Shown: piece after piece, positions 9,122 through 47,909 of the stretch
How the letters are laid out: each line of letters starts with the position of its first letter
Position numbering within the stretch: the first letter of the stretch is position 1
Origin: a virus
IMG/VR virus record: IMGVR_UViG_3300028392_000041
Location: 47,828 to 111,827 of that record
Length of the DNA stretch: 64,000 nucleotides
Strand: one strand, 5' to 3'
Program-made: the position numbers and the translations under genes
Notes under the pieces: generated by a model
Told to the model about the DNA's origin: nothing
The model's database searches: none
Seen by the model: the letters and a program-made list of their open reading frames with translations, nothing else

Positions 9122-9700
9122 TCATTTTAAATCCTTTACTAAGTCGCATAGTCCAAGTTTCTGTGCTTCCTGAGCAGATAACCAAATATCCTGCGGAGGA
9201 AGAAGTGTTTCTCTAATTTTTGGTTCAGTTAAACCTGTCACTTTTTTATAGTGAGCAATCATTCGTTTTGTTGTCAAATCGAATTCTTTAACTGTCGCAA
9301 ATAACTCATGCTCTTTGCCAAACGCACCCCAAGAATATTGGTGCGATAAAATTGAAGTGTTCGGTGTAAGAATTCGTTGTCCTTTAGTTCCTGAAGCAAA
9401 GATCAATAGACCTGCCGAAGAAACCTGCCCCAAACCGATTGTTCGAATTGGAATAGAAGAACCACGCATCGTGTCAATAACTGCGAACGCAGCATTCAAA
9501 TCGCCACCTGGAGAGCAGATAATTAAATTTAACAACTCTGGTGTTTCAGCAGTGAAGTTTGATTCAAGTATCCATTCTACCAATGGTTTTACCGAAGAAA
9601 GGGAAACTTCTTCCATAAGAAGAAAGAATCCGTGAGTAGATTTATCACCCTCTTTGAGAAAATCTAAATTCAATTTTTGCATCATACTATTTGCCATCAA
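9122..9700 (-). CDS. clpP: ClpP-like serine protease
   Basis: ICSPGGD, GQVSSAG (Ser), ILSHQ (His), QDIWLSA.EA..LGL.D (Asp). Confidence 0.9.
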   Translation of the reverse strand: MMANSMMQKLNLDFLKEGDKSTHGFFLLMEEVSLSSVKPLVEWILESNFTAETPELLNLIICSPGGDLNAAFAVIDTMRGSSIPIRTIGLGQVSSAGLLIFASGTKGQRILTPNTSILSHQYSWGAFGKEHELFATVKEFDLTTKRMIAHYKKVTGLTEPKIRETLLPPQDIWLSAQEAQKLGLCDLVKDLK

Positions 9701-11293: not shown

Positions 11294-11314
11294 TTAATTC
11301 CCTTTTTAAAAAAT

Positions 11315-11605
11315 ATGGTAACTTATTCTGTTACGAGGAAAGTTACCGAAACCCTAGTCAGCGATTAAGCTGCCAATGCGAACTGTGAGTCGTTTGCGTT
11401 TACTTTTGTTTAGTTTTAACATCTACTCTGATGGGTTGTCCACTTCTATACTTGTTACCCTGTCGAAACCTAGTCACCCCCATCAGAAGCACACCCATTA
11501 GAGCCCATAAAATGGTTTCTTTCATCTAACACATGCACTTCTGGTGGAGGTGGGGAGAATCGAACTCCCGTCCAGAATACTTTTCTAGTTGCTTCACACA
11601 ACCAT
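11315..11605 (-). ncRNA. ssrA: Circularly permuted two-piece tmRNA; tag ANDSQFALAA
   Basis: Acceptor piece ...GGACGGGAGTTCGATTCTCCCCACCTCCACCA (ends 11542) precedes a 60-nt intervening stem and the coding piece GGGGGTGACTAGGTTTCGAC (starts 11481); G3-U70; tag ORF 11397-11365; outer ends approximate. Confidence 0.92.
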
Positions 11606-11641
11606 TCACCTATTATACATTATATATTTATTATAGTCAAA

Positions 11642-12292
11642 TTAAATACCTTTTAATTGCAAATATTCTTTGCGAAGATCTTTAAAATGTCCAATCCATT
11701 CATTCCTACGCTCTTCAAACACTTGTGGGGTATAATTATCAACCCCAACTATAATTACAAGTCTATTAACAGGAATTCCTGTCAACTCCTCAAACATAAC
11801 TGCATATGCAGAAGTCTGCATAAAGTAACCATGAATCCAATCACGATTTTTAAGTTTAGATGATGTTTTAAAATCAATGATAGATAACCTACCTTTATAC
11901 TCAGCAATACAGTCAACAGTTCCTGCAACTTGTAGATGGTGAGAATAAAGCGGACTCTCTAACGCATGTATATTATCTATATTATTTAATTCTGGGACGA
12001 GACTTTTAAATAGGTGCGAATCAAAGAAATCTGGTTGAGTAGGTTCTCCACGCAAATAGGATTCGCAGAGGGAGTGAATTTTGGTTCCTCTTGATGCTGC
12101 TCTGGTGGAGATTTTGTTTGCTTCTTCTTCTCCGACTCTTTTTCGCCAATCAAGGATTCCCTGTTTTGAGTGCAATCCAGTAACTGTGGTAACGGAGGGA
12201 TAGGATTTACCCGAAGGTGTGCGGTATAACCTGCCTTCGGGACTATCGATACGCTCCAGTTTCGCAAATTCATGATCAATAAATGTTTTCAT
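11642..12292 (-). CDS. PD-(D/E)XK exonuclease (Cas4/Exo5-like)
   Basis: YPSVTT, RGTKIH, AGTVDCIAEY.G.LSIIDFKTS, YFMQ.SAYA. Confidence 0.85.
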   Translation of the reverse strand: MKTFIDHEFAKLERIDSPEGRLYRTPSGKSYPSVTTVTGLHSKQGILDWRKRVGEEEANKISTRAASRGTKIHSLCESYLRGEPTQPDFFDSHLFKSLVPELNNIDNIHALESPLYSHHLQVAGTVDCIAEYKGRLSIIDFKTSSKLKNRDWIHGYFMQTSAYAVMFEELTGIPVNRLVIIVGVDNYTPQVFEERRNEWIGHFKDLRKEYLQLKGI

Positions 12293-36571: not shown

Positions 36572-36660
36572 TGGAGGAAGGATGGTAGAATCGAACTCCA
36601 TGCGCTTTCGCACACCTTCTGCTTTCAAAACAGAGTCCAGCCCAGCTGAATTAACCTTCC
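36572..36660 (-). tRNA. tRNA-Ser(TGA), atypical (bulged T-stem, U73)
   Basis: TCTGT-TT TGA AA-GCAGA; long variable arm; CCA. Confidence 0.75.
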
Positions 36661-36837: not shown

Positions 36838-36911
36838 TGGTAGGGGCACAGAGAATCGAACTCTGATTTGTTGGTTAAAAGCCGACTACTTTTCCGTTAA
36901 GTTATACCCCC
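36838..36911 (-). tRNA. tRNA-Lys(TTT)
   Basis: Cloverleaf; CCA. Confidence 0.88.
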
Positions 36912-37026
36912 GAATCTTATCTAACCTGCGCAATGCTTTGTTTGTTTTGCGATGCGCACCAGCTTTTCTAAACAATGCCAGAACAACGAACTGGTTGCGT
37001 TGCTTGGCGATCATCTTTCGCTTCAT
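36886..37026 (-). CDS. Small basic protein (46 aa) whose stop lies inside tRNA-Lys (not in ORF track)
   Basis: AGGAG SD; MKRKMIAKQRNQFVVLALFRKAGAHRKTNKALRRLDKIRGYNLTEK*. Confidence 0.75.
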   Translation of the reverse strand: MKRKMIAKQRNQFVVLALFRKAGAHRKTNKALRRLDKIRGYNLTEK

Positions 37027-37044
37027 CGTTCTTCTCCTAAAAAT

Positions 37045-37120
37045 TGGTACCCCATAAAGGAATCGAACCTCTACCTCTGCGTTCGTAGCACAGTATGATT
37101 ATCCATTTCACCAATGGGGC
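37045..37120 (-). tRNA. tRNA-Arg(ACG)
   Basis: Loop CT ACG AA; CCA. Confidence 0.9.
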
Positions 37121-47555: not shown

Positions 47556-47909
47556 TTAACCCCTTCTCATTGTCGCAATCGCAACTGCTTCTTCATCACT
47601 AAAAATTGGAACGGCATTGCTTTTATGCATGGTACCGATACCTTTTACCTTTGTACCTGTATAAACAGGGTTTGGCTTTTTGAAACATGGTGCGCCAGTA
47701 AAAGGAAGACTCGGAATCTTAGGTGTCTCACGACAAGCAGGTTTCCCGAGGAAGTCTGACTCACTGAGTTTCTGGTGCTTTTGTGGAGCAGTCGAAGTCT
47801 TTGTGGCATACTTCTTTAACATGTTTTCCCAGTCCTCACGCAACTTGCGTGCTTTGGCATCTGGCTTACGCTTTTTTGATTTTCCTAAATTTGTATGAAG
47901 CATTTGCAT
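47556..47909 (-). CDS. Hypothetical protein
   Basis: YTG....GI.TMHKSNAVP.F motif; own promoter. Confidence 0.7.
   Translation of the reverse strand: MQMLHTNLGKSKKRKPDAKARKLREDWENMLKKYATKTSTAPQKHQKLSESDFLGKPACRETPKIPSLPFTGAPCFKKPNPVYTGTKVKGIGTMHKSNAVPIFSDEEAVAIATMRRG

Follow-up and report, generated by a model that had tools for sequence, protein, structure and literature searches.

Introduction

Back-up ribosome rescue has, to our knowledge, proved essential wherever it has been tested. Among the factors described, ArfA (YhdL, PF03889) is RF2-dependent and occurs in Escherichia coli and some other Beta- and Gammaproteobacteria; its messages lose their stop codon through an RNase III hairpin or through a terminator within the ORF, with the result that the product is held low by tmRNA. 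In E. coli, RNase III cuts a hairpin lying inside the arfA ORF (PMC8012679, PMC10107115). The message of Bacillus subtilis BrfA (YqkK) likewise lacks a stop codon (PMC6881298). ArfT of Francisella tularensis, at 40 aa the same size as the peptide described here, has an ordinary stop, is not gated by tmRNA and is constitutive (10.1101/465609). Both BrfA and ArfT are small, basic and RF-dependent, and such factors have several origins and share no sequence similarity. Most Betaproteobacteria are without ArfA, which was found in 37 of 1,000 genomes (PMC11633108).

The formation of an mRNA 3′ end by excision of an adjoining tRNA is familiar from mitochondria, as tRNA punctuation. Incomplete stop codons in mitochondrial messages are completed by A-tailing. 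RNase P, for its part, cleaves at position +1 of a tRNA. We know of no gene class besides ArfA and BrfA in which a stop-less message is the rule. Here we describe a phage gene for a small basic peptide that runs without a stop codon into a tRNA-Lys; by analogy, it suggests that a protein family unrelated to ArfA and BrfA follows their logic but obtains its stop-less message by a new route. The rescue function itself is inferred. The DNA analyzed (hereafter the window) is a stretch of 64,000 nt, positions 47,828 to 111,827 of IMG/VR record IMGVR_UViG_3300028392_000041, a 112-kb, ∼69% complete fragment of an uncultured T4-like phage in which a gp59 loader, PhoH and dCMP deaminase are present.

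Results

The peptide gene lies on the minus strand of the window, within an array of 27 tRNAs called by ARAGORN. Its ORF (37026 to 36886) encodes 46 aa, MKRKMIAKQRNQFVVLALFRKAGAHRKTNKALRRLDKI followed by RGYNLTEK, and is preceded by an AGGAG Shine-Dalgarno (SD) motif (37034–37038, minus strand), whose 7-nt spacing from the ATG at 37026 was read directly. A tRNA-Arg(ACG) (37045–37120, minus strand; ARAGORN and Rfam) is found 18 nt upstream, and a tRNA-Lys(UUU) with an encoded CCA (36838–36911, minus strand; ARAGORN, and 59.7 bits with the Rfam tRNA model) follows. ARAGORN places the 5′ end of this tRNA-Lys at 36911, and so, independently, does the Rfam model, the positions 1–71 of which correspond to 36911–36841. 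With the tRNA beginning there, the final complete codon ahead of it is that of Ile38 (36915–36913), which leaves a single extra base, the C at 36912, with which the mRNA is predicted to end once RNase P has cut, the RNA end being inferred. The predicted stop-less product is therefore encoded by the 38 codons ahead of the tRNA (MKRK...LDKI; 36913–37026, minus strand). As judged from the ORF translation, the in-frame continuation RGYNLTEK and its TAG (36886–36911, minus strand) fall entirely inside tRNA-Lys, with this first in-frame stop (36888–36886) 23 nt into the tRNA, and the tail probably does not belong to the functional peptide. The earlier note on this DNA had reported an AGGAG-led ORF of 46 aa with no stop ahead of a tRNA-Lys at 36911, and its coordinates were exact.

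The same arrangement recurs in other phages. In 71 of 85 distinct phage junctions, no stop separates the conserved core of the peptide from the first base of tRNA-Lys(UUU), and two more, not counted among the 71, end at contig edges inside a tRNA-like start; three loci missed by the pattern search (L001, L048 and L053) were found upon inspection to run into tRNA-Lys as well. The ORF in the cultured Synechococcus phage BUCT-ZZ01 (ON615601, 123446–123592) also enters tRNA-Lys, and Burkholderia aenigmatica LMG 13014 and Achromobacter anxifer LMG 26857 have copies located in tRNA arrays. Because it recurs in so many distinct homologous junctions, the stop-less layout is far beyond chance. The distance from an invariant His codon to tRNA +1 is 39–53 nt, corresponding to products of 37–42 aa, and the gap between gene and tRNA is 0 nt. 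All three frames are represented at the junction (27, 19, and 25 of the 71), the first in-frame stop lies anywhere from 5 to 125 nt past tRNA +1, and about 11 junctions remain open through the whole tRNA with no stop inside. Since the stops are scattered and every phase is used, the portion inside the tRNA is not conserved as coding sequence; what has been conserved is the lack of any stop ahead of the processing site.

The junctions comprise 35 different versions of the tRNA-Lys 5′ end, and the tRNAs flanking the peptide/tRNA-Lys module are shuffled between homologues, the upstream tRNA (Gln, Ala, Tyr, Arg, Gly, or others) being 16–26 nt away in most. Two loci with near-identical peptides (L020 and L024) even have different tRNA-Lys types and different phases. 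The base at −1 is mostly U (43 of 71 junctions), which fits the preference of RNase P for U at that position. The proteins called at such loci are often longer, with tails (AFNR or RLLTDR..FDS..PHQ) that are tRNA-Lys(UUU) translated in two frames, and of 150 representatives, at least 52 have a 5-mer in common with tRNA-Lys in translation (shuffled tails, 0). Gene finders thus seem systematically to mis-call these genes as longer proteins reading through tRNAs. Regarding the RNA end, a lake RNA library contains a 199-nt contig (93% identical) that spans 36912–37105 and ends 2 nt beyond the tRNA-Lys boundary. With only this contig, from one study, and with assembly graphs breaking at conserved tRNAs too, it is no more than a weak hint in support of a cleavage-defined 3′ end.

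Several junctions are of unusual structure. At L045 (1612–1900; also at L041, L046, and L047), the peptide gene enters the apparent 5′ half of a tRNA-Lys, which is followed by ∼250 nt containing a long inverted repeat and then by the next tRNA. The tRNA-Lys in this group may be split, intron-bearing or dead, and the element matched no Rfam family at the gathering threshold. At L151 (1300–1400), the ORF stops inside a sequence that resembles a tRNA-Lys(UUU) anticodon stem-loop and ends in CCA; because ARAGORN gives no call, this element is an aberrant or degenerate tRNA-Lys.

A word-based search returned 24 relatives, with similarity ending abruptly at about residue 36. A profile of the portion ahead of the tRNA retrieved 519 clusters at E≤1e-3 from 1.84 billion representatives, and two scans of viral contigs gave 173 and 147 loci of the family. 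The core, RNxFVxLAxFRKAGxHRK(S/T)NKALR(R/K), is invariant or nearly so across 44 phage variants. Among 46 distinct nucleotide versions of it, pS was 0.66 (near saturation), pN was 0.13, and the median dN/dS was 0.11, and up to four or five synonymous codons are used at the invariant Leu, Arg, and Ser positions. The low dN/dS, taken with the variety of synonymous codons, indicates selection on the peptide and not on codon content or RNA structure. Of 75 homologous junctions with an in-frame ATG, 71 had an SD-like motif. By all of these measures, this is a real gene, translated and under protein-level selection, rather than a chance ORF. It represents a large family, so far uncatalogued, whose very basic proteins measure ∼38–60 aa and which is distributed among phages with tRNA arrays and Burkholderiales chromosomes.

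No known family could be assigned. Pfam gave no match at E≤10 for the window protein and none for 25 members of the family or for 10 chromosomal members, NCBIfam contained no match for the family, and a profile of 25 members found 0 matches at E≤10 among 177,635 distinct PDB sequences, rescue factors and ribosomal proteins included. The hit to PHROG 27773 (E = 0.095), a group of unknown function, was uninformative. The ESM Atlas returned unnamed viral clusters only, apart from a 10% DUF7230 label (rank 17), and that label was set aside, as it was unconfirmed by Pfam scans of the members. In the full-text literature, most subscription journals being outside our coverage, we found neither the family nor a stop-less gene terminated by a tRNA described. 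An AF2 model of the peptide is a single helix at residues 12–37, predicted with moderate confidence (pLDDT 74.5); such a helix would be consistent with an RNA-binding tail or one that lodges in a ribosomal channel, and it is non-diagnostic. A homologue of divergent organization is present, unannotated, in Acidovorax phage ACP17 (L002, 1492–1644): it has no ATG, GTG, or TTG start, its frame opens at a CTG overlapping the TGA of the upstream gene (CTGA), its last 24 nt are shared with the next gene, and there is no tRNA nearby.

At phage loci lacking tRNA-Lys, other structures occupy the same position. Inverted repeats start 45–47 nt after the His codon at three such loci, with arms of 23 nt at L153 (96% complementarity), 15 nt at L178 (100%), and 33 nt at L077 (82%), and the stop comes where the 3′ arm begins, or none occurs before the next tRNA. 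This is the layout of E. coli arfA. Chromosomal homologues were found in 50 of 301 genomes of the GTDB order that contains Thiomonas (Burkholderiales), at one copy per genome; they stand alone, away from tRNAs in general and tRNA-Lys in particular, and no gene neighbours were conserved among them (RtcB, SIS, TonB receptor, HD-GYP, and others being encountered). In 8 of 23 chromosomal members examined, a GC-rich hairpin with a T-run (i.e., an intrinsic terminator) lies inside the ORF before the stop, 86–129 nt after the His codon. The stem sequences differ by locus, and the translated tails of these members are of the type FPPF or GGFF. As a positive control, three genuine ArfA genes from the same order sample also have a terminator inside the ORF, with the tail ...DGFDTVPPFLCL. 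Three unrelated devices, the 5′ site of a tRNA, a long hairpin, and an intrinsic terminator, are accordingly represented in one family, and each is predicted to strip the stop from its message. The earlier note had asked if homologous genes, too, enter tRNAs or terminators with no stop and had named ordinary stops before the tRNA as an outcome that would refute its proposal; the former is borne out by the 71 of 85 tRNA-Lys junctions, the hairpin loci, and the 8 of 23 chromosomal terminators, and the latter was not seen in members adjoining tRNA-Lys. At one locus only (L198, 1671–2876, minus strand), a terminator-type chromosomal member adjoins a gene for RtcB RNA ligase.

Ordinary stops are found in other branches of the family. 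Nine chromosomal genes of the Thiomonas type end at a TGA that follows the His codon by 57–63 nt. Among phages, the L154/P0013-21 group and Variovorax phage V45v66 have ordinary stops as well, as do several representatives ending in ...KRELxx. A hairpin around the Thiomonas-type stop was considered and rejected because RNAalifold found no shared structure, and these stops seem ordinary. By analogy to ArfT, the ordinary stop of which resembles only these subfamilies, they may be constitutive versions of the protein, which is conjecture.

The likeness to ArfA had been attributed in the earlier note to size, charge, and regulatory logic and not to a recognized alignment, and Pfam, the PDB profile search, and hhalign were all in agreement with this in giving no homology. 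Both proteins are small and very basic, both have a hydrophobic stretch (FVxLAxF in the peptide) followed by a basic tail, and the family meets the layout from which a stop-less message is predicted (i.e., a processing site or terminator before the stop). In contrast, ArfA has a KGKGS motif where all members of the peptide family have AGxHRK(S/T)NKALRR, its mature product is 52–55 aa as compared to 37–42, and the phage members differ from it in using the tRNA 5′ processing site (RNase P) as their end-forming device. A six-frame search of the phage record with PF03889 gave no match. With hhalign, the comparison to ArfA aligned only “LFR” (P = 0.33), and the probability was 0.9% once Neisseria-type ArfA was added; the first ArfA set consisted only of near-identical enterobacterial sequences, which limits sensitivity, and the three Neisseria-type sequences were a later addition. 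Locally, hhalign matched the two families best in their terminator-encoded tails. When forced, the alignment with ArfA is collinear (RN/DN ... L-F-R ... basic tail), which is a resemblance and not evidence. As for mitochondrial tRNA punctuation, the likeness lies in the manner in which the mRNA 3′ end would be made; completion of the stop by A-tailing was rejected since only 6 of 71 junctions would yield TAA, and the peptide message, unlike the mitochondrial one, would remain stop-less.

The window also encodes a permuted (two-piece) tmRNA of the betaproteobacterial type (11307–11660, minus strand; RF01850, 139 bits; RF04321, 124 bits; ARAGORN), with the tag ANDSQFALAA, and a ClpP-family protease (9122–9700, minus strand; PF00574, E = 1.3e-29, 99 bits), both of which had been said to accompany the peptide gene. 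The link between this ClpP ORF and the peptide is inferred and is a matter of context only. The beta_tmRNA model scored above the Rfam cut-off in 4 of 5 other large peptide-bearing phage genomes (G306, G308, G309, and G310), a count made without a control set of phages lacking the peptide. The phage record, itself a fragment, yielded neither SmpB nor a protein with an RF-1 domain. In the bacterial sample, ArfB was present in 23 of 50 family-bearing genomes versus 155 of 251 others (Fisher p = 0.04, uncorrected for phylogeny), so the family is only weakly associated with depletion of ArfB. Phylogenetic exclusion with ArfA was dropped as a line of inquiry because ArfA, found in 3 of the 301 genomes, is too rare.

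Discussion

That the stop-less design is selected and functional seems to us very probable. The whole chain that we propose to explain it, from stop-less message through tmRNA gating to back-up ribosome rescue, we consider an even call, because the cleavage-defined 3′ end, the tagging, the ribosome binding, and the rescue are all inferred. In its favor are the protein-level selection on the peptide, the stop-less layout kept through three different end-forming devices, the ArfA control with its terminator inside the ORF, the beta-type tmRNA genes of peptide-bearing phages, and the ArfA-like order of hydrophobic stretch and basic tail. The tRNA array would be transcribed as a precursor, with the peptide gene presumably between two tRNAs in a polycistronic transcript. 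By established tRNA processing, an RNase P cut at 36911/36912 together with 3′ processing of tRNA-Arg would leave a mini-mRNA of ∼133 nt ending in ...AUU C. Ribosomes would be expected to run to the 3′ end of this message and stall there, whereupon tmRNA of host or phage origin would tag the peptide for degradation. Were trans-translation saturated, the 38-aa peptide would be released by residual rescue and accumulate untagged, and it could then free stalled ribosomes, probably by lodging in the vacant mRNA channel and bringing in a release factor, if the analogy to ArfA, BrfA, and ArfT holds. Counting against this proposal are the lack of homology to ArfA or any solved rescue factor, the subfamilies with ordinary stops, and the merely weak depletion of ArfB. 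Nor does a generic rescue role account for why tRNA-Lys(UUU) is the only tRNA used.

All of the evidence on the stop-less layout would fit equally well if the design were real and gated by tmRNA capacity, with the peptide acting as a stress sensor or effector and not as a rescue factor. It could, for example, be a ribosome- or RNA-binding modulator, a decoy for tmRNA/SmpB, or a protease adaptor, or it might be tied to tRNA-Lys itself, such as by countering anticodon nucleases that cut tRNA-Lys(UUU). We regard this as unlikely, if by no means to be dismissed: the persistence of tRNA-Lys(UUU) at 71 of 85 junctions despite shuffled neighbours, the lack of homology to known rescue factors, and the presence of ArfB in about half of the family-bearing genomes are all in its favor, but the gene classes known to have stop-less messages are rescue factors only (ArfA, BrfA; PMC8012679, PMC6881298). 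Furthermore, a strictly tRNA-Lys-specific job is argued against by the chromosomal homologues, which lie away from tRNA-Lys and have no conserved neighbours.

The gene might instead encode an ordinary small basic protein that happens to overlap a tRNA, being translated from unprocessed precursor as far as the stop inside the tRNA, in which case the missing stop would be a by-product of packing. Such a stop is indeed present in frame in the window and in most homologues, and ordinary stops in some subfamilies are consistent with this account; however, neither the position nor the phase of the in-tRNA stop is conserved, ∼11 junctions have no such stop at all, and unrelated devices (hairpin or terminator) stand in for the tRNA at the same distance. 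Because RNase P processing of tRNA precursors is known to be fast, and because ribosomes entering the tRNA would unfold it, we consider this explanation quite improbable. Likewise, the position of the gene directly 5′ of tRNA-Lys and its 8 Lys codons in 38 would suit a cis-acting leader peptide that senses the supply of Lys-tRNA and regulates how the downstream tRNA-Lys is processed or expressed. We nonetheless give such a leader hardly any credence, as it is the amino acid sequence and not the codon content that is conserved (dN/dS 0.11), the 0-nt gap to the tRNA leaves no space for a terminator/antiterminator, and the homologues on bacterial chromosomes are solitary genes without tRNAs nearby.

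Returning to tmRNA-gated rescue, its most far-reaching form would be a new RF-dependent rescue family in tRNA-array phages and about one-sixth of the sampled Burkholderiales genomes, gated by RNase P in the phages and paired there with tRNA-Lys(UUU) as a two-part answer to host attack on tRNA-Lys. We offer this only tentatively and would not expect it to hold in full. If it is true, the two parts would be a replacement tRNA-Lys and the rescue of ribosomes stalled by the attack, and the family would be the fourth RF-dependent one after ArfA, ArfT, and BrfA, as well as the first candidate rescue factor encoded by viruses. Widespread and easily recognized, it would fill part of the betaproteobacterial ArfA gap, and tRNA excision by RNase P would constitute a third way to a regulatory stop-less message. 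The placement of the peptide beside a viral tmRNA and near-complete tRNA sets would then suggest that phages manage ribosome stalling during infection.

Some minor features of the tRNA arrays were also noted. Between tRNA-Ile and tRNA-Met, the window contains a further tRNA-like gene (36576–36660, minus strand) that is not called by ARAGORN and falls under the Rfam gathering threshold, with 40.6 bits for the tRNA-Sec model (E = 2.7e-7); because it has a UGA anticodon loop and a long variable arm, it is probably a tRNA-Ser(UGA) rather than a tRNA-Sec. On a 145-kb viral contig (L064, 771–1226), a GOLLD RNA (RF02032, 223 bits) with an embedded tRNA is located just upstream of the peptide module.
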